A stretch of 64,000 bases of DNA, taken from Stegostoma tigrinum. Lineage: Eukaryota. Below the pieces are notes generated by a model. It saw only the letters and a program-made list of their open reading frames with translations, had not been told where the DNA came from and did no database searches. Below are positions 22,355 to 43,752 of this stretch, piece by piece (position 1 is the stretch's first letter; every line of letters starts with the position of its first letter). The DNA is taken from assembly GCF_030684315.1 (NCBI RefSeq), contig NC_081385.1, positions 11,725,080-11,789,079 of the forward strand, read 5' to 3'. A program made the translations under genes and the position numbers.

Positions 22355-22504
22355 ATGGGGAAGAAGCAGAGGAAAGCGGCGCGGTCGGAGGCCGCCTTTT
22401 ATTGCGAGGTTTGCCGGCAGACCTCGTTCAGGGGCTGGGGGCATGTGTACGGCCTGAAGCACCAGGAGAGGCTCGGGGTCTTGCTGGGCCGCTTCCTGCG
22501 CAAG
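22355..22504 (+). CDS. CENATAC: CENATAC exon 1 (first zinc finger)
   Basis: [50 protein letters not shown], donor AAG|gtaaga, CpG-rich context. Confidence 0.93.
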
Positions 22505-25500: not shown

Positions 25501-28500
25501 TGCACCTAACAACACACAAGTTGCAGTGTTTCAAGAAAATAACCCACCACCACTTTCTCAAGGGTAGTTAGCAATGAGTGATAAATGTAGGCATTGCCAG
25601 CTTCGACCTATAAATGTATGGTGTGTAATTTCTTTCTATTCCTTAATATCAATCTACATTTTTTATTAAAATAAGTCTCTACCTATTTATGACCTTTCAA
25701 ATTACAGTATAGTCAAGTTCAATTATTCTCACTTTTCACCTTCATGATGTATTCAAATCCTGTACTTTGAGTTCAGATTGTAATTGATGAATATAATCCT
25801 GTAGCTTTCAGGAGGAAGTCATCTTGGTGCCTTTCCAGCAGTGGGATTTGTGAGATGTAATTGCACATTCCACTTATGTCTAGGTCAATAGTCTACCAGT
25901 TTGCAGAGTGCCTTTTTGTCACACTTCTTTTTTTCACTTTTTAATCTTCTTAGTCTGAAGTTTCTTAATTGGATTTTCAGCTATTAAGTTTTAAAAAAAA
26001 TGTTTACAGCAACCTTGTGTATTCTGTTTGAATTGCAAGTGAGTAATTTGTTTTTTTTTGATTTAGCAACAAATTAGTGTCGTTTCCTGCAGGCAGTTTT
26101 GTCAGTGTGCTTCAAGCAATGTGCACTCAATTCCAAGGTCACTACCTAGCGAATGTGAATGCAGCTGAACAAAATCTGTTCTTGTTAACTAATAAAGAAT
26201 TACACAATGTGATTGTTTGAGCTCACTCCAGACATTCTCTTTTGCATCTGCTTTTAAAAGGGCAAATGTCATCTTGTGACCTTGTGCATTAAGTCATATG
26301 GGACAGTAGATCTTGGGATGAGCAATAAAATTAGTAACAATTCACCTGTTATTGTTGTGATCCCAGATACTGTCATGAGTTCCTTTTGAGTGCGCTGTCT
26401 GACTAGTCAAGTGTGGTATTTGCAATGAAAGGGCGGCATGGTGGCTCAGTGGTGAGCACTGCTGCCTCACAGTGCCAGGGACCCAAGTTTGAGTCCACCC
26501 TCATGCGACTGTCTGTGTGGAGTTTGCACATTCTCCCCGTGTCTGCGTGGGTTTCCTCCGGATGCTCTGGATTCATCCCACAGTCCAAAGATGTGCAGGT
26601 TAGGTGGATCAGCCAAGCTAAATTGCCCATAGTGTTCAGGGATGTGTAGATTAGCTGGATTATAGGGGGATGGGTCTGGGTGGGATGCTCCAAGGGGCGG
26701 TGTGGACTTGTTGGGCCGAAGGGCCTGTTTCCACACTGTAGGGAATCTATGAAATCTACAAAACATGTTTATGAAGTAAACTGTATAGACAGTAATGGGT
26801 GTGAAATTCAATCATGTGTTTCCCAAGATTGTTAGTACTTCCCTTGTTTAGGATGAACAATAAACAACAGTATTTCATATTCGGTTAGAACATAGCTGTG
26901 AGAACTCAATTTTACTACCTTAGTTCTGCATAACTTAATAATGTAGAACATAGAACATTACAGCACAGCACAGGCCCTTTGGCCCTTGATGTTGTGCCGA
27001 CCTGTCATACCGATCTGAAGCCCATCTAACCTACACTATTCCATGTACATCTATATGCTTATCCAATGACGACTTAAATGTACCTAAAGTTGGTGAATCT
27101 ACTACTGTTGCAGGCAAAGCGTTCCATTCCCTTACTACTCTAGAGTAAAGAAATTATCTCTGACATCTGTCCTATATCTTTCACCCCTCAGTTTAAAGCT
27201 ATGCCCCCTCGTGCTCGCCATCACCATCCTAGGAAAAAGGCTCTCCCTATCCACCCTATCTAACCCTCTGATTATTTTATATGTTTCAATTAAGTTACCT
27301 CTCAACTTTCTTGTCTCTAACGAAAACAGCCCCAAGTCCCTCCACATTGTCTAACAATCTATCCATTTCTTATTTACATTTTAATTGACATCTCCCCCTT
27401 CCCCGCGCCCCCACTTCCCCCAATATCAACAGGTTCTGTGAGAGAATTCCAGGTTTCCAGAATCTTTGCTGTGAAGCAGTGCTATCTCCTGACACTCCTG
27501 AACTGCCTGCCAAGAATTGTAAGGTTGTGCCACTGCTTTGACTCTGTAAGGAAGGGAAGTAGTTTTTATGCATCAAGCTGAGCAAATCCTATTAATCATC
27601 TTAAGCCCTTTGACTGGATTGCCCCTATTCTTCTGTATTTGTTTGCAGTCTCTCGGCGAAAACAATTTTAATGTACTTATGGATCATTATTGGGAATGCT
27701 TGATGAGATGAAGGGAAAGTTTTCAACAAAAACAATTGTAATTGAGTTAAGAAGCTGGCAGTAGGATATTTTCCAGACTTTTAGAAGATTCTGCCTTTAT
27801 TGCTTTTGAAAATGAATCCAATGAGTATAACCTAGAGCAGCTCAGAGATTTGAGCATTCTTCTAAAAGTGGCTGCTATTAACTCCCAGGTTGAAGATGCA
27901 CAGCAGTCTCTTAAAGCAGTACAAGTGGAGAAATATGACATCGTTGAGCATGAGCAGAACTTCTGGTGCTACTGCTGCAAGAGGGAGGTGAAGAAACACA
28001 TCACAGATGGGAGCCTTGCTGTGCTGTATGGTGGGCTTCTTGAGCACTTTGTAAGGTACCGTATCAGAGGAAAACACCTATTCTCCACACTATTCCAGTA
28101 TAGAATAAAGAATTTCCTGCCATAGTGAAATATTCCAGTGGTCATAAGTGGGCAAACATGGAATGAAAATGCTGCATATGTTCTGATTTGCAACAAAGTA
28201 GGAAGCACTAGTTTCTCAACTGATATGATAGTCATTCAAACACTAACTTTTTGACTTTTCATTTATAGCTCAGAACACATGAAGCAAACCAACAAATTTT
28301 GGTGGGAAAACAAAGCAGACATCAAGTTAAAAGACAAGTTTATTCTGTCTAACGATGCTTATGAGAAGTAAGTGGTGGATTTCAGCACTCTGGTTACACA
28401 TTCAACACACTGCCTCACAATGATAATAAACAGATATGAATATACAGAAATGATAGGCAGGGAGTGACCATCTGATCCAACAAACATATACAGCCAAGTA

Positions 28501-31500
28501 TCATGGTCTTCAATGTTCACAGCACATCTCCATGTAATCTCCTGGAAGAAGGGTAGAAAGGGATTTTTAATTGGGAAGAAAGTTAATTTGAAGATTTATG
28601 AGGAAATCTGACTCCCTGATTCTGATCAGATGCATTCTACAAGCTTGTCAACTGACATAAACCAACACCATAGGCAGTGGTTTCAGCCATAAAGTCTGTC
28701 AACTGCTTTTGAACTCCTGCAGCAAATTCACGCTTGCTGCTTGAGTTGGCAACTGTTTCCTATGTTTTTTACCCCCATCTGGTGTTATTGGTCATGTATC
28801 AGAGATGCACAAATTGCACCAAATAGCAGTTAGAGAGCATGTTGCCTACCTGGGTATCTGACTGGGGACTTTCTCATTGAAGACCAGTTTTGAAAGAAAC
28901 ATGCACTAAGGCCAAATTTGTTTTTGCCTAGTTTTTCAGAATTCTCCCTTCACTCTGTCTTGTTAAGGTTCAAAACAGCTGTTGCAAAGGCAGTGGAAAA
29001 CTATGAAGAGAAGGAGGATGAATATGTTAAACAGGTATGTTAGGTTAAATTGATTTAACTTGATGAGGTTCTCTGCAGCGTTATCATTAAGATTTAGCTG
29101 TGATTTAGCATTCCCGCCTTTTGAGTCAATAGGTTGAGTGCTCAAATCTGATTGCAGAGACATGAGCATCTGAATAGAATGCTTTCTAATGCAGAAGTGA
29201 AAGTCTGCAATAACACAGCATGGAGCTGGAGGAACACAGCGGCCCAGCCAGCATTTGAGGAGCAGGAAAATTGACATTTCAGGTCATTTAGCATTTCTGA
29301 ATTAGAATTTAGCACTTCTGAAGAAGGATCCCAATCCAAAAAGTCAACTTTCCGGCTCCTCTGACCCTGCCTGGCCTCCTGTGTTCCTCCAACTCCACAC
29401 AGCGTTATCTCTGACTCCAGCATGTGCAGTTCTTATTATCTATGAATGAAAGTCTGTTGTTCTGTCAAATGTAGAGGAGCAGGAAAGTTTGATTCCTGAA
29501 TTCCTGCTCCTCTGATGCTACTTGGCCTGCTGTGTTCATCCAGCTTCACACCGTGTTATCTCAGATTCTCCAGCATTGGCAGTTCCTACTATCTCTGCTC
29601 TGTCAAATGTGTTGCTTTTAAGATAAGGTGTTAAACAAAGATCCCCTCCTCTGCCCCAGCTTGCCTCCGGGTACTCTTCAAAGAAGAGGACAAGTTTTCC
29701 CTGATTATTTTGTTCTGTGGAAGCTTTCAGATTCATTGCCCCATTTCCTACTGTGATGACACTTCAAAATTGTTTAATTAGCTGAAAAGCACTTTGGGCG
29801 ATCCTGAGGTTGTGAAGGGTGCTACAGACTTTTGTCTCTTTTTAATATTTCTCATCTTTGTAGAACAGTGTAGCCAGGATGTAGCATCCTCAAGCGGAAT
29901 CCAAAGGTTTCCCCAAAATGAGGAATCACAAGATTGGCAGTAACTTTATTGGGCATGTCAATGCAACACTACAAGGCTGAAAAGATTGGTGGCTGCCCAC
30001 AGTCTGCTACAGGAGATGCATGGCTGGGGAGAGACAAAATAGAGAATTTGGATGGAGTAAAATTTCAGTTTGTTAGTAAAATGAAATTGCTTGTTGTAGT
30101 AGCTCTAACTTAGCCTCTCTCAACCATTTAAGGTCAGAAGTCACATGATACCAGGTTATAGCCCAACAGGGTTATTTGAAATCACAAGCTTTCATAGTGT
30201 AGCCACTTTGTCAGGTGAAGTGAAGTGCACAGGCACAGAATTTATGGACAGAGATTGAAAGGCCATACAAATGGTGTGAGTGAAGTGTCGACAGGCTAAA
30301 TTATAAGTCCATGCCAGTGATCAAAAGTGTCAGACAGTGGAATAAAGTGTCAAGAGCTGAACAGCAAGTGGAAGGATGACCCATAATCTGAATAATTGAG
30401 GCAAAGAGATAATTACAAAAAATTAAAAATAAGGCGGTGCTGGATACATACCAAATGACTAGAATGACGTTATGGGAATAAGAGTGACATGCCAAGAGTC
30501 TAACCAAAGTCACAAGTAATCCAAAACTGTACAAACTAATTAAGGTAGAGAGATCAGAACATATTATCAAGGTGATGGTGTCAAAACAGGACGGTGAGGG
30601 AGATTTTCCAGATACAGAAGTGTGGTGGGGTTACATGTAGCGCAGCATGAACGCAAGGTTTGGAACGTGGCTATCAATTTCTGCCTGGTGATTCTGCATT
30701 GTGTTGTACCTTGAAGGCCGCCTTGGAGGACACTTACCTGATGATTGGAGGGTGAATGTCCTTGGCCACTGAAGTGTTCCCCGACTGGGAGGGAACATGC
30801 ATGTCTGGTGATTGTTGTGTGGTGTTCGTTCATCTGTTGCCATTGAGTTTGCATGGTGTCGCCACTATGTCATACCTCTGGGTATCCTTGCCTGCAGCGT
30901 ATGAGGTAGACAACATTGGCTGAGTCACATGCACATCTGCCATGTACGTGGTTGGTGATGTTCCCCATCTGATGGTAGTATCCATGTTGATGATGTGACA
31001 TGTCTTGCAGAGGTTGCCATGGCAGGGTTGTGTAGTGTTGTAGTCGATGTTGTCCTGAAGGCTGTGTAGTTTGTTGTGAACGATGGTCTGTTTAAGGTTT
31101 GAAGATGAGAGGCGGGGGCATAGGGATGATCTTTGTGAGATGTTTGTTGTCATTGATGACATGTTGAAGGCTGCAAAGAACATCGCGTAGTTTCTACGTT
31201 CCAGAGAAGTACCAGGTATGGAAAGGTGGAAGGGATTGGTTATGTCCCATGTCTGTCTTCTGAGCAGGTTGTTGTGGTTTTTTGCTGTGGTTCACCGGAA
31301 CTGGCAATCAATCATATCCGTTTTTACAAAGGTATCTTTCAACATCTTTGGGTGTTCGTCATGTTCCTCCTTGTCATAGGACATTACAGGTCATCCCTTC
31401 ACTTGCTATTCAGCTGTTGACACTTTACTCACACACCATCTGACACTTTTGATCACCTGCTGATACTTATTGTTCAACCTGTTGACAGTCCGGTTGCACC

Positions 31501-34500
31501 ATTCGTACGATCTTTTGATCTCTCTGCTTATAAATTTTGTGCCTGTGTCTCTTCATTCCACCTGACGAAGAAGCAGTGCTTTGAAAGCTTGTGATTTCAA
31601 ATAACCCTGTTGGACGATAACCCCAGTGTCATGTGACTTCTGACCTTGACCCCCCCCCCGCCAACACTGGCGTGTCCACATCATGCCAACCATTGAAACA
31701 CGTGGGATCATCCATAGTGTAATCATATTGAATTTATGTTTTTTTATTGTCAAATAATTATTATATATAATTATTGTGTAGGAATTAAAAGGATGTATGT
31801 TTTTCTGAAGAAATTTAAAGTATTACTCAAATAAAACCAGTGATCATTCTGAATAAATAAATAAATTCTCGAAAGTTGTAAAAATGTTCTTTCCATTTAT
31901 TTACATGGGTGTTCATCTGTTTAATCAAATGGGAAACCCATGTCCTCCTAGTCCTGGGGCTTTACAAAGGACCTTCTTTGATTGTAGATTCATAAAACCT
32001 GATGTCTGTAAATGATTAAGATGCATCAAAGTCATATTTAAATTGTTTACAAAGATGTTAATGTATCAATCAGAATTCTTTAATTCCTTTGTTAAAACAG
32101 CATATTAATGTTCCCATTTTCTTCAGTGCTTTTAGTGGCATTCAAGTACTGTAGTGGAGTTTAATACAATCCACTGGTATACTTGTTATGAACAATACAT
32201 TGAGCAGGCTTGTTTTTCTATCCTGATTCCATTGTATCTCTCAATTACTTAACTCCATTAATAAGTGATTATTTTAAATTTATTTGGATTCTCTATAGGA
32301 AGCAGAATATATTCGAGAAGTGGAACGGAAAAGACGGGAAGTAGTGCAGGCAGCCTTTGAGGTTGGTTTTACCTGGATGAGCCTGAACAGTATCCATGGC
32401 AACTGTTGTATTTTACACTGACTGATGTATATATTACATAACAATCCTGAAAGATTTATGTGATGCTACCTTAATAGTTTGGTTAAGGCCACACAGCTAA
32501 GCCTTACGAGAGCCGCAAATTTTGAGTTCTCAGAGGAAGGTGAAGGTGAAGGTGATGGCCTGGTAGTATTATCGCTAGATGGTTAATCCAGAGACTTGAG
32601 TAATGTTCTGAGGACCCAGGTGCAAATCCTGCCATGGCAGATAGTGGAATTTGAGTTCAGTAAAAATCTGGAATTGAGTGTAATGATGACCATGCAAATA
32701 TTGTCTATTGTTAGGAAAAGCCCATCTGGTTTACGATTGCCTTTATCGGGGGCAATTGCTATCCTTACTTGGCCTGGACTGCACTTGACTCCAGACCCAC
32801 AACAATAAGGTTACTACCTACTGGACATTTAAGGATCGACTGTAAATACTGGCATAATGATGCTCACATTCTGTGAATGAATAAAACTAATTTCAGTGAG
32901 GGTAATAAAAGGGTGGCTACAATTGGTTTCGGGTGAACTTGTGTTGAAGGGGACAGTCAGAAAACTAGGATTCTTTACATCACACACAATCCAGAGATCT
33001 TTCCACTGCTCTTCTGTGTGCATCCCATGCCCCCTAAATGTCAGAGTGAATAATACGTCAGGCTAGGATTGGGCTTGATTCGGCTCCAATCAGCTCCAGC
33101 AATAGCCTCCTAATATCTCTTGTCAAGGCTTGCGGAATTTGACCATTTCATTGAGGTAGCAAGAGTTGAGTGACAACAGGGAAATGTCCCTCAGTTAGAA
33201 ATGGTGGAAGGAAAGAAAAGGATTTTTAAAAGTTTTAAGATTTTTTTCAAGTAAACAATTCAGATCCAAACCAAGAAGTCTCCTATGCAAATCAGTTATT
33301 GAATTCACACAATAGATTAAGAACAGAGGTGTTTTATTGACAGTAGAGCAGTTTTATGCAGTAATGTCCCTGGACATAGTTCCATTAATATATGAACACT
33401 TCACTTTACATCTTTCTGTTTTGTCGTTCGTCTGATTCCTATCACAATTTTTTTCCCTATCTGCAGTGGATGGTATCGACTCAATTTTCATTTATCCATT
33501 CTATATTTTGAAAAATAGAAATGAATGGAAAATTAGATTCTAGTGGAAGATTCCATCCAATGGGCTGAATCATAGAATTCCTACAGTGTGAAAGAAAGCA
33601 GTTCGGCCCATTGAGTCCACACCAAGACCCCCCCCCCCCTCCCAAAATCGAAGAACATCTAACCCAGAACCCCCACATCCCTGTAACCCTGCATTTCCCA
33701 TGGCTAACTCATCTAACCTACACAGCCCTGGATATTGGGCAATTTACCGTGGCCATTCCACCTATCTGCACATCTTTGGACTGTGGGAGGAAACTGAAGC
33801 ACCTGGAGGAAACCCACACAGACACAGGGAGAATGTGCTAACTCCACACAGCCAGTCGCCTGAGGGTGGAATCAAACCTGGGTCCCTGGCACTGCAAGGC
33901 AGCAGTGCTAAGTGCTGTGTCAACCTGCAGCCTTCCTTTGCTCTCAATTTTGTGGTTCTAATTCCACCACACACCCATTTGTTCATGCTAGGGATGCTTG
34001 CATCCTTTGAATGCGGTTTTTTTTAAAGCTCTGAATCTGCATATAGAATTGCTTTCCTCCAACCTGATCAGTTCTAGACCAGTAGACAGATAATGGGTAT
34101 ACCCGTTGAGATTCAGTGTAGTAGGGATGGTAAAGTTGTCCTGAGTGAAAACTGGGAGAATCAATGGAATGAAAACATACTCATTATTAATACAATATAA
34201 CTCATTACAAGGGGCAGTATCCTCCATTACAATGAAAATATTTATCTTAAATACATTTGTTAGGTTGTCTGTATTTTGTGTTTTTGACCTCTGTATTTTA
34301 AGAAAATTGAATATTTTTGACTAACCCTAGAATTTAATCTATACATTAAAGAGATGGAGAAATGAAGATTTTCTTAAATTCCAGATCAAAATTCTATACA
34401 TGCAGTTTTCAGGCAATAACATTTTTTTTGTATTTCACTGGGATTAATGGAAAACTGATCCTCTGCTTTAGGGGTCAAAAAAGAAAACTGGGATAATGTA

Positions 34501-37500
34501 TTTTTAAAAAAAAGTCCACTGCAGTATAATTTCAGAAAACAAACTTTATTTACTTTAGTTACAATGGTTTGTCACCAGTATTCTATATATTATTTATTCA
34601 TGGAGATATTCTCTGGACTAATACAGTCAATATAATCTCCCCTTTTATACAAAGAACAATGAAGCCAAATCACAATATCTGGACATTGACTTGCTCTTGA
34701 AGTGCTTCTGCTTACTCTACCCCTTTTTTGCTATTTCTCTTTTTTTCACAGCATGCTCCATCTGGGATAGTTTAGTCGAGGAGGGGGCGGGATTGCAGAT
34801 TTCTATTTCAGGCATTCACTGTTACCATCTGGTTCAAGCCAGGTGAGGGACCCTCTGTCTACAGGTCCATTCTAAATTGGACAGCATTTGTTATATCTGT
34901 TACCTAATCGAGGAGAGTGTTAGCAATGCTTCAAACCACTGTGGAGTGCGAGAAAGATGTGCTGTCTGTAGCCAGCCCTGAGATCTTGCCTGTGTAGGTG
35001 AAGATAATGTGGGTTTATAGCTGGGAGCCTGTTGCCAGAATAATGCAGAGACAGCATTTGCAAAGCCAAGAAGAATGTGTTGTGGATTAAATTTTTTTTT
35101 ACCAAGCTCTTTCTTGGGATGAAAATGTTAATTATGTTAACCACTGGAGTTTAGCACCTGGAAGCTGCATAATTTTGCAACATGCTTTACAGATGAATGT
35201 TTGGTTGTTTACTCATTTCTAGTGCAATAATTGTCATTGAAATATTTAAACTTTAAGAGAAAAAGTGTTGATTTTTCCTGAATCAAAACCAGCCACAGGC
35301 AGAGCAGAATTCTATTGATGGACTCCCAGTATTTGCAATCGACCACTATGAAAGGTAAGAAAAATTCATGATTTTGTTTTCAATCTCATCTAATTTGCTA
35401 CAGAAATGTTTAAATATTATTGCTAAAGCCAATGCTTCTTGGAACATCTTTTGCTTATTGTGGAAAGGGCATGTTTGAATATTAAGCAAGTTTTGGATCA
35501 GGTACTTCTGATCCACACTGGAACATTTAAATTTCAAGATGGACCAACTGTTGGTTGACATGATACTGGAAGGCTGTTGGCTTTGATGCAACCATACTAA
35601 GAGTTGCACAAATCAAAAGACACTGCTATAATTTTAACAGCACACCCCACGTCCCAGTACATCTTTCCATCCCTAGTCCTTGGAGAAAATGCTTGTTTAT
35701 ATTTGTAAATTCTGCCTGTGATCCGATTTATAACATTCAAGCTTGGGGCCAATGTTATCACTGTTAGCTGAATGTCAGCTTGTAGGGTGAACCTTAATAA
35801 CTTGCAATACCCACTGTGGTGCTCTATGTTGGAAAGCCAGCATGTAAACACCACGCATAAAGGTTTGTGGGTATTTTTACTTTCTCCCCAATGATGTATG
35901 CAGCTGCAGATCTCAAATTCACGTGTCTTCAATAGGGAAGATCCTAATTCAAAAGTTATGTTCATGTGCTTCCCAGCAGCAGGTTGTTGAGTAACATAAC
36001 ATCTCAGCTCAGATTGTTCACCTCTTTCACTAGTAGAAAGTAATCATGAGAACCACTGCATGCTCTTGTTTATCTTCTGACACCTTCTGGTTTTGCAGGG
36101 GCATTATGTGAATCTACTCAATTTCATGTTTACAGAGACATAGTGATGTACTGCACAGAAATGGACCCTTCAGTCCAACTCATCCATGCTGACCAGATAT
36201 GCTAACTTAATCTGGTCCCATTTCCCTCTAAACCCTTGCTATTCCTATACCCATCCACATGCCTTTTAACTGTTGTAATTATACCAGCCTCCACCACTAC
36301 TTCTGGCAGCCCTTTCCATACATGCACCACCCTCTACATGAAAAAGTTGCCCCTTTAGGTTTGTAGGTGGAACCACTAGTCCTAAATCTCCATCGCTGCC
36401 TGACCTTTTCTTTCTCATGCCACACCCCACTGTCACCATTTTCTTTTCTCCCATTTGTCCTTCCAAACCTTGGAATTCACTTCAAAGTTTCTTCCTCCTC
36501 CTTCCAGATGACATCCAATATGTATGATTTGGGAGAAAAATAATTTGTAATGTGCAGAGAAAGTTGAAGAAACTCAGCAGGTTAGGCAGCATCTGTGGAG
36601 ACAGAAACAGTTAACATTGAGTGCAATATGATGCTGCTTCAGAACAGATCAGAAAGCTGTTCAGATTTCTAGCAATTGCAATATTAGGCTTATATTTCAA
36701 ATGTAGTGCCATTTTAATCAAATGCCCCAGCTCCAACATCCGATTCATTTTGTTTGCTTGAGTTTTATTTAATAAGTCATTGATTTCAGATATGAAAAAG
36801 TTGGTCACAATAACATTGCAGATCCATGTTTTCACAAGTCCTGGAAGTTTTTCCATTTTAATGGATGAAATTCTGATTCCTTTTCTAAGAATGGCAGTGA
36901 TGTTAAACAGGGAGGGTGGCACAAAACTAAAACAATCTGACCACCAGCTAATCAGCAGAGTCAGTAATCTACTTCTGTGCTGGTGTCTTATGGACACACA
37001 TAAACGTGTGAATTAGGAGTCAGGAGAAGGCCATTCACCAAGAGCCTGGCTGATTTGATGACTCCACATTCCCACCTGCCTTGATAACATTTCGCTTTCT
37101 TGCTTAAGAATATCTACCTCTATCTTCTGAATATTCAAGGATTCTGCTCCTGTCTCTGTTATTTACTTTTTTTAATGTTAAGCCACAATATGCAAAGGCA
37201 AAATTGGGGAAATTAATTTAAGATAAACTTTACCAAATTATTTCCCGTGTCCCACATTTCAGAAACCAAGAGGACTTTTTTTTAATCTGTTTCTTAGCTC
37301 CATCAGGGCCACCTATAAATTAACCAACTCCCTGTTCTGTGGTTACATCTCAGTTAAACTGTTCATTTCTTTCTGACCAAATCAAACTTCCTAACTTAGG
37401 GACATTGGCACAAAAAAAATTCTCAACTGTCAGTGCGAATAAAAGATCTACAGCAAAGAGAGATGGAAAGGTGTCTAAGAAAGGATTTGAGTGCAGTGAT

Positions 37501-40500
37501 CGCATGGATGATGCTGCTGACACAAAGATTTGAGAACATATGACACTGCCATGTATTCCAGAGAGCTAAGGAGAAACGGTGGAAGCAAAAATGTTTTGTT
37601 CAGTCTTCATTTTGCAGCAGAACTTTTAATGAGCATAGATTCACAGTTCCTTACTTCGTTGCTTTTGTCAGTTGTATTCATGAGTGCTGATTTCTGCAAA
37701 TGAAAATTTCATCCAAATATTTATTTTGGGGATGTGGTTGGGTTGTTAGATTGGGAAAACATGCAATTTACAGAAATTATTCTGCTAATTCTGTTGTTTC
37801 TGTGCAAGTCATGGTACCTATATTGCTGAAGAGAATGAACCTGGGCCAAGTGGAGTAAATTTTCCTTATCGTTCTTGTGAAGTGACAAATGGACAAAACT
37901 TGACTTTCATTGGTGACCAGGTGATGTTTGAATATTGATGGAGGTACTTCTGTGAAGTGTCGGTGTGTTTTTGTGACATGCGTGACAGTATTCTATTGTG
38001 TGTAAAGACTTCTGCACCTTGTTTCATTTGCATTGCAGTGAAATGCAATTGAATCAGTCTGTAGTAGGTCTGGGGAAAGCATTTGCACTGGCTCATTCAG
38101 ATCCTTTCTGTACTCTGCAAATCTGGTGCATTCAAACAGCGCCTGCTGCAGGAATCAGATTAGAGATGATCTGCTGGAGCTGACTACATTTGTGTTCCCA
38201 GTGTGAGCAGGAGCCACTGGCTTATGTAAAGTTTGCATTCTCCCTCCCAACCTTAGCAACATGGCAAGCTGATTTGTCATTGTGCAAGTCAAATCTTTGT
38301 AGTTTGTGCAAATAATGTCCAGGTACATAAGGACAAATCCAACCCAACCAGTTACTCGCACATCAGTCTACTCTTGATCATCAGTAAAGTGACGGAAGGA
38401 ACTTCCATCAAGCAGTACCTGCTCAGTGATGCCCGGTTTAGGTTGCGCCAGGACCACTCAGCTCCTGACCTCAGTGCAGCCTTGGTTCAAACATGGACAA
38501 AAGAGCTGACCTGCAGAGGTGAGATAAAGTTGACAGTCCTTAAAGTCAAGTCTGCATCGACAGAGTATGGCATCAAGGAGCCTTAGCAAAACTAGAATCA
38601 ATGGGTATCGGGGCAAACTCTCTGCTGGTTGAAGTCATACCTAGCACACAAGATGATGGTCATGGTTATTGGATATCAGTCATCTCAGCTCCAGGACATC
38701 TCTGCAGGAATTCCTTTGGCTAGTGTCTAAGCCCCAGCCATCTTCAGCTGCTGCATAAATGATCACCTTCCCTCTATCATAAGGTCAGAAGCGGGACTGT
38801 TTACTAATGATTGCACAATGATTAGCACTATTGACGACGACGACTCGGGTACTGAACCTATCAATGTTCAAATGCAACAAGATCTGGATAATGTCCAGGG
38901 TTTGGCTGACAAGTGGCAAGTTACATTTGCACCACACAAATACCTGGCTATGACCATCACCATTAAGAGACAATCTAACCACCAATCCTTGACATTCCAT
39001 AGTTTTACCAGCTATTAACATCCTGAGGGTTGCCATTGACTAGAAGGTAAACTGCACTTGCCACATTAAACACAATAGCTATAAGAACAGGACAGAGGTG
39101 AGGAATACTGTTCTAAGTAACTCACCTTCCCCCAAAGCCTGTCCATCAACTACGAGGCACAAGTCAGTGTGATGGAATACTTCCCACTTGATTGACATCA
39201 CTTTCACAAGCATCCACTTCTTCTACCACCAATGCTCAGTGACAACAGTGTGTACTATTTACAAAATGCATAGCAGAAATTCACCAGAGATCCATAGATA
39301 TACCATCCAAATCCATGAGCACTTCCATCTAGAAGGATAAGGGCAGCAGACACCCGCAGGTTTCCCTCCAAGCAACTCACCGTTCTGACTTGGAAAAAGA
39401 GTCTTGTTCCTTTACTGTTGCTGGATCAAATTCCTAGAATTCCCTACCAAAAGACATGTGGGTCAACCCACAGCAGGTGGTGTGCAGCGGTGCAGAAATG
39501 CAGCTCACAACTACCTTCTCAAGGGCAACATATGCTGACTGGCCAGCCAGCACTACCCACGCCCCATGAATGAATTTTAAAAGACAGTACAACTGATGGA
39601 GATGCTTGTTCCTGTGAGTGTATGAAAATGTCAATATGGATTATTCAATTTTAATTTGAAAACTAATTGTGCATTTTTTTATTTGGATATAACAAATTCA
39701 AAGTAAACTGTTAAAGTTGCAACTCAACCAATTTGGTTTGTCAGGATCTGCAATTAATGTCTGACTGGCTTTTTCCTACAATTCCAGATATCCAAACCAG
39801 AAATTCAGAACATTCACACAGGTGAAGATGTCATTTTGTGCAGGTTTACATTGTGTAATATAATGACTGTATTTAGAAGTGGGATTTAGGCAAAAGATGA
39901 TTATGTAAGTGTTATATATTAAAAGCTGCTGTGATTGGTTAACAAACATCATTTAACCATAGTAGTAATTAACAGTTTTTCGGCAAGTGTAAACTAGTCT
40001 AGCATACTGAATTTAACAGCAGCCTTCACTCAATTGATATTCCACATGCACTCTACTGTCAAATGCATTTATTATCCACTTTGGTTTATAGTACTGTAAA
40101 ATATGGTGAGTAAATTTCACCTTTAGGCTCATTGAGGATAACAGAAAATTGTACAGCAATCATAGGTGCATCTGTTAAGTATTTTTAAAGTATTGTTCTG
40201 GAATGTATGCAGAAACATGAATCCTGTTCTGCAGTGACTCAACGTATGTATAATTAGACATTTTATATGTTTTTTCAGTTTCGGCTTTTTAGATTTTTCT
40301 TCCTTAATATTCTGGGATGTGGGAGTAAATAGCAAGACTGGCATTTATTGCCTAGCACTAATAATCATGGAGAATTATCATTGGATGATTTTTTGACTAT
40401 TTGAACCTCTGCAGTTCACATGCTGAAGGTCCTCCTACAGTTTTTGTCCAGAATAATCGCAAGTTCCCAGTCTTGGGAATCCCTGTACTGTACCTTACCA

Positions 40501-43500
40501 TGTGATCAGTTACCATGCCTTAACTTAAATCACTTCTCATTTAATTTCATCCATTCAAACAATTAATTTTACTTGAGTTTTCAGGATCGTGGGAGTACGT
40601 AGGAGATAATATTGGAGGATATCTGCTCTTCTCTTTATTTGTGATTTGAGATTTTATAAATCAAACATACTTGAGTGTTATGCAAGAAATTATACCAGGT
40701 TCTTTTGTACTATAAAATTTGTCTTTTGGGATAAGTGTTTTTATTTTGGTCAGCAATTAAATTCCATTGCATATATAGTTAAAACTGAAACAAAATCATT
40801 TCAATTTGTATCATTCTATAATGCCTGTGTACCTTGTCTCCCACTAATCTATACATCTGATCTCAGGTGCTACTCCACCCTGGCTTATTGATGATGATGA
40901 TGATCTGGACACAACGCCAAAATCGATAGGGCCATCTTACGAGGAGTTTATCCAACACAGTATGTTTAATATTATAGTGGGTAACTTATTTACAGAAGGT
41001 CAAGAATGGTCATATTTTCTATGCAGTAACAATATTTACACTTGTATAGCGCCTGTAGCATGAGATGGAAAAACAGTCCCAGGTGGTCCATGGGGCATGT
41101 CATTAAACAAAACTGAACACTAAACCAACTTGAGATTGTTAGGCGGGTAACCAAACCCTTGGTTAAATTGATGAGGCAGATGGTCTAATCCCTCTGAGGA
41201 CCAACAACTCAAATTTACCAAATGACCCCAACCAAAAAACCTAATGGACAAGGTAATTTGTTGATTTTGATATGATAGTTCATGTTTTATTAATCAGGAA
41301 AACTAGCATCACTATCAACTATAAAGTGCATACTTAATAGCAGATATAAAGATTTAATTCATCTATTGGACAGTCCACTCGATACCTATGGCAGCAGTTC
41401 AATCACAATCTCCATCAAACCTCTGAACTTTCTCAGGCAGAATTGCAGGTCTCTTTTGAAGATTTGGCCTCTGACTTTTACCCAGCAGAGGCACCCAACT
41501 AACCCAGTCTCCATGGGCACAAACATCACCATATTTATGTGGCCCTACAGAAGCACCATAATCTAAACCCTTGGACAACTCTTCTTTTTAGCCATTGCCT
41601 CTCACACTTGTGAACCTAGCCATATAGGCTTATTTAGGGTCATATGATTGCAGCTGTTCCCCCCAATCTCTTCCATATTGGAAGTAACACTGCCTCCGAT
41701 CACCAGAGGTGAGAGCTCAAGGGCTCAGCAGCTAAAAGTCTGCTCTCCCATGGTTGAAGCATCATAAAGCTCTGGATCCTCAAGTGCGTAGAAATGGAGC
41801 AGCACCAATTATCTTTCGAGTTGAGAGTGGAGTTTACGTAGTGAATGTGGAGATACTTGCAAACCAAGATGAGAACTTTAATGGTTATTGTTGCTTGACT
41901 TAGAATGAAAGATGAATGGGCAATTAGGGTGTTGAGTAGGATGAGCTTATATTTTAAATGACCATTTCTGAAATCTGTAATTGGATTTTTAACTATTCAA
42001 TCAAATCCCATTCCCACTTCTGTCCTAAATGATGAAACGTCTTTGAAATAGATTTTTTTAACAATAGTTTGACAAATTGTGACCATTTCAAATAGTGCTG
42101 GAGGCTCTCTTTGCCTTAAATTTATGCTGAGATTACAGCCTTGCTGATCAACAACAATCTGGTGCGAACTAGCATAATTATAAACAAATCACCTCTTGGA
42201 GAAGTTGGTATTTCTTTTGCCAAGGCTAATTGTCACCCTAAACTTGAATCTTCCTCCATGTTTTGTTAATTTTACAGCTTTATAATGAAATATTCAAACT
42301 CTACTTTGCCAGCTTCAAGGCCAACATTTATTGTCCATCTCAAGTTGTCCTAAAGGTGGTGGTAAACTTCCTAAAATTACTGTGGTTTGTATGATATAGG
42401 GAATACTATTACTGTAAAGCATGTTCTTCTGTAATGCTTCTGTTAATAGTGTTGCTGTCCACCTAACAGGTAATATATAAATAGGCCAAATAAATTTAAT
42501 TTAGTGCACAAGTATACAAACTGAAAGTCGTTCCATTCTGAGTGTTCTTGGGTAATGTGTAAGAGTATGAGCACTTACTGTTCGTTTCAGTAAATCAGTG
42601 ACATGGTTACAAAAAAAGCTAATGAAATGCTAAACTGAGGTGGAGTAGTGTATCTATTAAAGAATTGTGAACTATAGTTGGAAGCATTCCATGGTGTAGA
42701 CAAGATGTTAAAACATGGTACAGCATGCATGCATCAGAATGCTGCCTGGTATGATTAAAACAAATATGAAGAGACTTCTATTTGAAGAGGAAGTGTTAGG
42801 AAAGAGATGAAGTGAATCAAGAACTTCCAGTAGTTCTGATCTAAAAAAGGGAATTAGTGACACTTAGGGAAAAGCAGGCCAATAAGGGTCTTCAGGCTGT
42901 GAACTACAGTTCCATTGTAATTTAAGAGGTATGGTAATGTACAACCAGGTGTGAGGGCTGGTCGAAGTGGTATGAAGGAATAGACTGGACACATGAGAAA
43001 AATACTAAAGTTAAAACACCAGTTTGAACTGGGTGAGCCAAACAACCTCTTGTTTCTCTCAAGCTCTACTGAAGGCAAAGTAGTGCTCAACTTCTGACTA
43101 TTTGAAGTTGGGTGTTGAAACATTTAACTTTACTTTTAGGTTAGATACTTGTTCAGCTAATGGCTCAGCATTCATGATTTTTCAATTTTAGAGGAGAAAG
43201 AAAAACTGAAGAAACTTCCTCCAAATAGAGTTGGTGCAAATTTCAACCACACATCAGAAACAGATGACTCCTGGTTACCTTCATTTGGCCGGGTGTGGAA
43301 TGATGGCAGGAGGTGGCAATCCAGGTGAGTTCTTATTTCTTGTCTTGGGTGGTTCTGCAGGATACAGGGATATGGCATTCCTGATCGCAGTGTAGTGTAG
43401 TGAATAAAAATGCATTCCTACACTGATTTGGTTCTGGTTTCCTGTTCCAAACTGCACTTGCCATTTAACACAACTCTCTAGAAACTTGACAGTTTCTAAT

Positions 43501-43752
43501 TGGAATACACCAGGAAGATCTTTACATTATAAGTGCACATATAGCCACTGAGAAATCAAAGTAATTTGGATTTGTAATGGTTTACTTAGCATTTCCATAA
43601 AGGCTTAATTGTTCTAATGTTAAATTGTTTCCTTGTACTTGATTGACAATACTGAACACTCAAATAGCACCAATCTCATTGACTGCTTTCATTTTTATAG
43701 GCATCAATTCAGATTAGAAGAAGGCAAAAAAAGAAAACGAGACAAGAGATGA
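22355..43752 (+). CDS. CENATAC: CENATAC/CCDC84, centrosomal AT-AC splicing factor (minor spliceosome component), 11 coding exons, 343 aa
   Basis: Exons 22355-22504, 27889-28055, 28269-28367, 28968-29034, 32299-32361, 35293-35354, 37809-37920, 39788-39821, 40867-40959, 43192-43324 and 43701-43752 join via GT-AG introns into a 1032-nt ORF. The protein has CCDC84 hallmarks: CxxCRQT..GHVY..KH, WCYCC...[11 protein letters not shown]...[29 protein letters not shown] and [14 protein letters not shown]...[21 protein letters not shown]. Confidence 0.95.
22770..24170 (+). mobile_element. Degenerate Penelope-like element with GIY-YIG endonuclease remnant
   Basis: [32 protein letters not shown] (ORF 23591-23797); pLTR at ~24040-24170; nested CR1 tail at ~22900-22995. 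Confidence 0.8.
26431..26757 (+). mobile_element. HE1/V-SINE-type SINE
   Basis: Well-preserved copy ggcggcatggtggctcagtgg...gggcctgtttccacactgtagggaatcta. Confidence 0.88.
26945..27345 (-). mobile_element. CR1-type LINE 3' end
   Basis: [35 protein letters not shown]; (agaacat)n tail. Confidence 0.85.
27889..28055 (+). CDS. CENATAC: CENATAC exon 2
   Basis: ctcccag|[55 protein letters not shown]; the in-frame donor is AG|gtaccg. Confidence 0.92.
28269..28367 (+). CDS. CENATAC: CENATAC exon 3
   Basis: tttatag|(S)[32 protein letters not shown](K)|gtaagt. Confidence 0.94.
28968..29034 (+). CDS. CENATAC: CENATAC exon 4
   Basis: tgttaag|[22 protein letters not shown]|gtatgt. Confidence 0.92.
30130..31690 (-). 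mobile_element. Second Penelope-like family, degenerate, with inverted ends
   Basis: GIY-YIG-region remnants ([13 protein letters not shown]; [14 protein letters not shown]); 30131-30245 and 31530-31650 are inverted repeats. Confidence 0.75.
32299..32361 (+). CDS. CENATAC: CENATAC exon 5
   Basis: ctctatag|[21 protein letters not shown]|gttggt; a U12-like GTATCCAT lies 28 nt downstream. Confidence 0.9.
32390..32397 (+). promoter_or_regulatory. U12-type-like alternative 5' splice site competing with the U2 donor of CENATAC exon 5
   Basis: GTATCCAT versus consensus GTATCCTT, 28 nt downstream of the weak major donor GTTGGT. Confidence 0.7.
33568..33925 (-). mobile_element. HE1/V-SINE-type SINE
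   Basis: Reverse complement of the same family. Confidence 0.82.
34752..34842 (+). other. Candidate poison cassette exon in CENATAC intron 5
   Basis: Long pyrimidine tract ending ttttttcacag, donor CAG|gtgagg, 91 nt long, in-frame TAG at 34773-34775 when joined to exon 5. Confidence 0.5.
35275..35292 (+). promoter_or_regulatory. U12-type-like branch point and PPT-less 3' splice site of CENATAC intron 5
   Basis: TTCCTGAAT (consensus TTCCTTRAY) with branch A ~11-12 nt from the AG; the intervening sequence CAAAACCAG has no pyrimidine tract. Confidence 0.6.
35293..35354 (+). CDS. CENATAC: CENATAC exon 6
   Basis: ttcctgaatcaaaaccag|[20 protein letters not shown](S)|gtaaga; starts with PQA as in the human protein as I recall it, and phases fit exons 5 and 7. 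Confidence 0.8.
37809..37920 (+). CDS. CENATAC: CENATAC exon 7
   Basis: tgtgcaag|[37 protein letters not shown]|gtgatg. Confidence 0.85.
38330..39580 (+). mobile_element. Degenerate non-LTR retrotransposon (L2/CR1 group) RT fragment
   Basis: [12 protein letters not shown]..., [23 protein letters not shown]; its 3' tail is shared with copies at ~4690-5060 and ~44620-45020. Confidence 0.72.
39788..39821 (+). CDS. CENATAC: CENATAC exon 8
   Basis: attccag|[11 protein letters not shown](G)|gtgaag. Confidence 0.87.
40867..40959 (+). CDS. CENATAC: CENATAC exon 9
   Basis: tctcag|[31 protein letters not shown](K)|gtatgt. Confidence 0.93.
43192..43324 (+). CDS. CENATAC: CENATAC exon 10
   Basis: attttag|[44 protein letters not shown](R)|gtgagt. 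Confidence 0.95.
43701..43752 (+). CDS. CENATAC: CENATAC exon 11 (last coding)
   Basis: ttttatag|[16 protein letters not shown] then TGA at 43750-43752. Confidence 0.92.

Follow-up and report, generated by a model that had tools for sequence, protein, structure and literature searches.

Probable competition of a major and a minor donor in CENATAC intron 5 of the zebra shark, the orthologue of a published human splicing switch

The question raised by the locus described here is whether a shark couples the expression of CENATAC (CCDC84) to the activity of the minor spliceosome, by means of two 5' splice sites (donors) which compete within one intron. The window, by which the whole analysed stretch of DNA is meant, comprises 64,000 nucleotides (nt) of Stegostoma tigrinum (contig NC_081385.1, positions 11,725,080 to 11,789,079) and contains the CENATAC gene, with 11 exons and a coding span from 22355 to 43752 on the forward strand. 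An earlier sequence-only reading had proposed that a major (U2) and a minor (U12) donor compete in intron 5, and had referred to reports of such donors in CENATAC; these are indeed published, and for this very intron (PMC6800510, PMC8280824, PMC8329584, PMC10853781). The element is the shark orthologue of the human CENATAC switch (Cologne 2019; de Wolf 2021); it is already known and does not represent a new kind of system. An in-frame major donor upstream, a minor donor 28 nt downstream and one acceptor with a U12-type branch motif are all present in the shark intron, so that each sequence-level feature of the switch is found, the sharing of the acceptor being deduced from the sequence.

Splice signals of intron 5

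A single GT-AG exon solution reproduces XP_048418036.1 (P0001, the S. tigrinum CCDC84/CENATAC protein) letter for letter, and the match to Pfam family PF14968 reaches 379 bits. The gene is the CENATAC orthologue, and the intron under study lies directly 3' of exon 5. The sequence-only reading had placed exon 5, both donors, the branch motif, the AG, exon 6 and the early TGA correctly (Table 1). The major donor, which had been called weak, agrees with the consensus at 6/9 positions, the joint lowest value of the 10 introns together with introns 2 and 9, as counted by hand against the consensus. The U12-like donor 28 nt downstream was confirmed as GTATCCAT, which agrees with an RTATCCTT-like U12 consensus at 7/8 positions. 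It is also listed as the donor of human U12 introns, for example in PTEN and EDC4 (PMC8280824 supplement).

At the other end of the intron, whose length counted from the major donor is 2,931 nt, TTCCTGAAT ends nine bases before the last base. From its sequence, the branch A is likely to be the one at 35282. The claim that a polypyrimidine tract is absent stood in part: with 9/16 pyrimidines at -5 to -20, the intron is the poorest of the 10 (10-13 in the others), but a run of eight pyrimidines is present, which likely doubles as the U2AF tract. In human, the switch was likewise located in intron 5 with a common acceptor, and the branch site was proposed to double as pyrimidine tract (PMC8329584). 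The human dual acceptor is bound by U2AF1 and ZRSR2, for U2AF1 as identified by cross-linking and immunoprecipitation (PMC10853781).

For the human orthologue, the minor donor was mapped to chr11:118882021 and the major donor to 118881993, 28 nt apart (PMC6800510 supplement). Scores of 0.82 for the donor and 0.87 for the branch site are given in the supplement of PMC8280824. When the final 21 intron bases were compared by hand with the human sequence from PMC8280824, 19 were identical.

Chance was estimated for each of the motifs. GTATCCAT occurs five times in the window, where 1.7 are expected, and the pattern of branch motif plus AG occurs once, where 0.08 are expected, and was obtained in 8/100 shuffles. 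By window frequencies, GTATCC would be met by chance among the 60 opening nt of a given intron with a probability of about 0.008, and the branch motif at 15 specified positions with one of about 0.002. Of the 10 introns, nine have neither GTATCC in the opening 60 nt nor a U12-type branch motif near the end, while intron 5 has both. The motifs are thus singly weak and near background, and it is their joint placement which carries the weight. A chance occurrence, or a decayed relic of a U12 intron which has been converted to the U2 type and has no regulatory role in sharks, would account for this single-motif background and for the rarity of the donor form: in text counts over the whole human U12 table, with about 515 G-type introns, GTATCCA occurs 20 times vs 361 for GTATCCTT (PMC8280824 supplement). 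The RNA and the comparison of lineages described below bear on this explanation.

A U11 gene (112 bits) and a U12 gene (143 bits) were identified in this genome. The minor donor forms four base pairs with this U11, interrupted at the A in +7. The branch region of intron 5 forms the strongest U12 duplex among the 10 intron ends, with -10.1 vs -9.1 kcal/mol for the next. A second U11 match (L002, G000:C13:10669238-10669369) is weak, with 47.5 bits vs 112, and is possibly a pseudogene.

Contig ends at the two donors in RNA of related organisms

Four of the 12 listed RNA runs (X1, X2, X4 and X5) were compared with positions 27800-33700 of the window. They are from two organisms, A and B, which are related to but distinct from S. 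tigrinum, and were seen as assembled contigs, from which ratios are not given. The joints of exons 2-3, 3-4 and 4-5 were present in all four runs, and the material is therefore spliced RNA. In X1, 32389 is the exact last position of the spliced contig, and an intronic contig sets in at 32360; the 30 letters in common (32360-32389) are the overlap expected at a fork of the assembly graph. In X5, the exon-5 piece ends at 32389 by bin depth, and about 89 letters remain which match nothing in 27800-33700, while in X4 the piece ends at 32361, also by bin depth. The X2 contig continues from exon 4 via exon 5 into intron 5. Contigs thus end at the U12 donor in two runs, at the U2 donor in one, and run into the intron in one, all within a compared stretch which ends before exon 6. 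These ends suggest that both donors may be used in the related organisms.

In organism A, the differences listed number zero over 32362-32426 and at least 14 in the 149 nt which follow (Fisher p 0.006). Unlike the single motifs, this local constancy and the contig ends at the minor donor are at odds with a chance or relic origin.

Unique portions of intron 5 are covered by contigs in 4/4 runs, while the joints bridge introns 2-4. Together with the X2 contig and with read-through records in bamboo shark, chimaera and cavefish, this would fit a different role for the minor donor, namely that of a brake, where U11 bound at 32390 blocks the major donor and intron retention lowers the output. We consider this very unlikely. 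Splicing requires a branch motif conserved in a fixed position, whereas a block does not, and in two runs the contigs leave the gene precisely at 32389. In human, the minor-donor junction reads are the majority (PMC6800510), and retention goes up, not down, on loss of U4atac or CENATAC (PMC6800510; PMC8280824).

Further routes out of exon 5 were seen in protein isoforms. In Pristis pectinata (P0144, P0146), annotated isoforms pass from exon 5 to another in-frame segment which replaces exon 6. In Oncorhynchus tshawytscha, the isoform P0183 reads on past the two donors and is back in frame from about exon 7, which implies an additional donor in intron 5 and the skipping of exon 6.

Table 1. Features of the CENATAC gene in the window
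Feature	Position	Strand	Evidence
Exons 1-4	22355-22504, 27889-28055, 28269-28367, 28968-29034	+	exact translation to XP_048418036.1
Exon 5 (63 nt, phase 0)	32299-32361	+	exon 4-5 joint in 4/4 RNA runs
Productive major (U2) donor GAG/GTTGGT	32359-32367, GT at 32362	+	sequence; X4 contig piece ends 32361 by bin depth
28-nt spacer, joins exon 5 and shifts the frame if the minor donor is used	32362-32389	+	sequence; X1 contig without differences across the spacer
Minor (U12) donor GTATCCAT, A replacing consensus T at +7	32390-32397	+	sequence; X1 contig and X5 piece (bin depth) end 32389; 4 base pairs with the genome's U11
Stop codon on intron 5 retention (201 aa)	32419-32421	+	translation
Run of 8 pyrimidines, extending into the U12 branch motif	35272-35279	+	sequence
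U12-type branch motif TTCCTGAAT	35275-35283	+	sequence; 9-mer equals the annotated human branch sequence
Common 3' splice site AG	35291-35292	+	sequence
Exon 6 (62 nt)	35293-35354	+	exact translation
Premature TGA of the +28 isoform (199 aa)	35316-35318	+	translation
Exons 7-11	37809-37920, 39788-39821, 40867-40959, 43192-43324, 43701-43752	+	exact translation

Elsewhere in the gene, the zebra-shark isoform P0122 carries 12 additional residues ahead of exon 4 (window 28930-29034), suggesting an upstream acceptor for this exon. In X2 and X4, the exon 4-5 contig begins just 28 letters before the joint, suggesting that a fork lies where exon 4 ends. Introns 4 and 5 hold interspersed repeats, probably of the short interspersed nuclear element type, at 29380-29600 and 32530-32720, where the contig depth is very high.

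Conservation of the arrangement

In a set of 312 proteins, the motif at the end of exon 5 was found in 223, and 11 of these extend beyond the major donor. In five of the 11, which are read-throughs, a placement of GTATCC is possible: at offset 28 only in the two from chimaera, at 28 but also at 46 and 67 in the one from bamboo shark, and at 26 only in those from salmon and cavefish. Three more, from cichlid, catfish and loach, fit a 26-nt extension leading into a frameshifted exon 6, with mismatches of 0/8, 1/20 and 5/17, respectively; for cichlid and catfish, the fit was equalled by 0/2000 shuffles. These protein letters imply an offset of 28 nt in chimaera and of 26 nt in five teleosts. Ten teleost open reading frames, out of 277 proteins scanned, end the intron in FLNQxQ, in the same register as the shark branch region. 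A homologue search with the bamboo-shark read-through region returned that region alone (1/3 candidates).

A first metagenome scan gave no relatives in 119 stretches, and a second gave 13 loci. Four of these (L004-L007) have long colinear matches and were used in the tree only, L008 begins 3' of exon 5, and in L010-L016 the match is confined to the C-terminal part. The motif scan took in L008-L010, where L009 alone was informative. Its exons match PF14968, and it was placed outside the jawed-vertebrate clade with support of 99/99 in a tree of 17 rows. An Atlas search with the L009 exon yielded unrelated bacterial clusters and pointed to no taxon. The locus contains GAG/GT, a 28-nt spacer and GTATCCAT, the +28 frame soon meets a stop, and TTCCTGAAT lies 13 nt from the intron end; its spacer is identical to that of the shark at 7/28 bases. 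In the same locus, the donor cassette is present as a tandem duplicate (L009:9159-9292; 67 nt, 66/67 identical), so that a major-like and a minor donor each occur once more, at offsets 67 and 95, every offset being out of frame. The duplication may be genuine or may have arisen in the assembly.

Offset and motifs are common to human, chimaera and L009 despite unrelated spacer sequence. With the evidence from RNA given above, this leaves an origin by chance or as a relic extremely improbable and largely refuted. The comparison points to the length of the out-of-frame offset, the +7A donor and the branch motif as the selected features, and not to the spacer sequence. That the arrangement predates the split of sharks and bony fish, as had been proposed, is supported by these sequence comparisons and was if anything understated, given the read-through proteins and L009. 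Competing donors were described as conserved in animals, and autoregulation was proposed, in PMC8280824 and its preprint. No literature was found which joins CENATAC with shark or CCDC84 with elasmobranch, though Appendix Fig S9A of PMC8280824 may include one, and the accessible parts of PMC11874965 and PMC11347168 hold nothing further on CENATAC intron 5. The analysis confirms a published minor-spliceosome feedback element as intact in cartilaginous fish and, by one locus, well outside jawed vertebrates. The ratio of major to minor junctions could report minor-spliceosome activity in RNA sequencing of shark or fish.

Proposed feedback model and comparison with known systems

Use of the major donor preserves the reading frame. 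With the minor donor, 28 nt are added, and the frame stops after 199 codons, 36 nt upstream of the exon 6/7 junction and 408 nt upstream of the last junction; on retention of intron 5, the stop is reached after 201 codons. A stop well upstream of the last junction predicts nonsense-mediated decay (NMD) under the 50-nt rule, and NMD of the +28 isoform is therefore predicted for the shark.

It is highly probable that the two donors 28 nt apart, with one acceptor, give negative feedback on CENATAC from minor-spliceosome activity. The model builds on the anatomy of the intron, the reading frames, the orthology and the contigs of related organisms which leave at each donor. U1 at 32362 would compete with U11/U12 at 32390 for the acceptor at 35293, the two donors being presumably mutually exclusive because they lie close together. 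By analogy with human, U11/U12 would join the donor at 32390 to 35293, and impairment of the minor spliceosome would reduce the use of this donor. An active minor spliceosome would divert transcripts to the frameshifted form and lower CENATAC, while with a weak one the major donor would win and the frame be kept. The +7A donor and an imperfect branch site may slow the minor route enough for real competition. Output would be lost as transcripts are diverted away from the coding isoform; NMD and retention of the intron would each contribute to the loss.

Several observations weigh against this model. The junction 32389->35293 was not seen directly, the compared stretch 27800-33700 ending before exon 6. 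The teleost and chimaera donors were deduced from protein letters and not from DNA, and three of the 11 extended proteins, of a conger cluster, fit neither 26 nor 28, their best fit being 20 nt over 4 codons. The lead of the U12 duplex of intron 5 over intron 3 is just 1 kcal/mol. In human, the isoform rose from 44% to 54% with cycloheximide (1.2-fold, n=1; PMC7347940 supplement, where the order of reading served to assign the panel, with three other panels compared with Table 1 as a check), and in control cells the form with the early stop predominates at steady state (PMC6800510). The small rise and the high steady-state share indicate that removal by NMD is weak in human. Of the claim that the minor product is an NMD substrate, the rule-based prediction holds, but the human test shows a weak effect. 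Likewise, high minor-spliceosome activity had been said to destroy the mRNA; the negative feedback is supported, but destruction is overstated and forms the weakest step of the model.

The same human data leave room for a different output. The minor route might yield a stable product of 199 aa, as obtained for the shark +28 frame, with both zinc fingers and without the C-terminal motifs, which inhibits the minor tri-snRNP (small nuclear ribonucleoprotein). C-terminally truncated CENATAC caused worse splicing and mitotic defects in human cells, which the authors read as dominant repression (PMC8280824). However, the tails after the shift vary in length and sequence between shark, cichlid, catfish and loach; since some lineages have a +1 shift and others a +2 shift, there is no conserved tail. 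The stop also satisfies the 50-nt rule by 408 nt, and the parts of the CENATAC literature examined report no such protein. A stable inhibitor is accordingly regarded as unlikely. The weak decay of the minor product also led to a wider conjecture, which we hold unlikely: that the weak +7A donor, the G-substituted branch and an always-frameshifting gap of 26-28 nt form a set-point sensor, fixed from a non-gnathostome lineage to human, and that what the sensor really delivers may be a truncated CENATAC with zinc fingers, an inhibitor of the minor spliceosome. If true, the loop would work at the protein level instead of by mRNA destruction. Feedback by diversion of transcripts remains the preferred reading.

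Five teleost open reading frames from sequencing-run assemblies (P0223-P0225, P0234 and P0235) begin two residues ahead of exon 6. Their starts fit a start codon within the 26-nt extension, and the "unproductive" mRNA might conceivably yield a C-terminal product.

The closest known system is the human CENATAC/CCDC84 switch, which has gene, intron, 28-nt offset and single acceptor in common with the shark (PMC6800510; PMC8280824; PMC8329584; PMC10853781). It also shares TTCCTGAAT at equal distance, the A at +7 of the minor donor, and a productive major and an early-stopped minor product. In contrast, the donor is GTATCCAA in human and GTATCCAT in the shark (human donor and branch from the PMC8280824 supplement), and the intron has about 0.65 kb in human and 2,931 nt in the shark. 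The shift of the ratio on impairment of the minor spliceosome, with a minor/major use of about 65/35 in controls and 15/85 in U4atac patients (PMC6800510), was shown in human only.

A parallel to SNRNP48 and RNPC3 had been drawn by the sequence-only reading. It is valid in that, with the U11 snRNP-binding splicing enhancer (USSE) of these genes, minor-spliceosome activity feeds back on the gene of its own protein via an unproductive isoform (PMC8329584). The device is different: in the USSE, a tandem repeat of U12 donors binds U11, is itself unspliced and activates an upstream major acceptor (PMC8329584), whereas the shark switch has one donor, which is probably used and has its own branch site. 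Identity with a USSE was rejected, as GTATCC is present just once among the 60 opening nt of the intron, contigs end there, and a tandem unused repeat is lacking.

In Arabidopsis, TITAN LIKE belongs to the same gene family, and there also minor splicing leads to an unproductive transcript (bioRxiv 10.1101/2025.02.25.639993). Unlike in the shark, this feedback uses a coding AT-AC intron inside an exon, which is kept or removed without a competing major donor. Major and minor spliceosome are also set against each other for one intron at the dual-type acceptors of DRAM2, PFDN5 and KANSL2 and in the nested introns of SRSF10 and prospero (PMC8329584; PMC10853781). These are other genes, and for SRSF10 it is the minor route which is productive.

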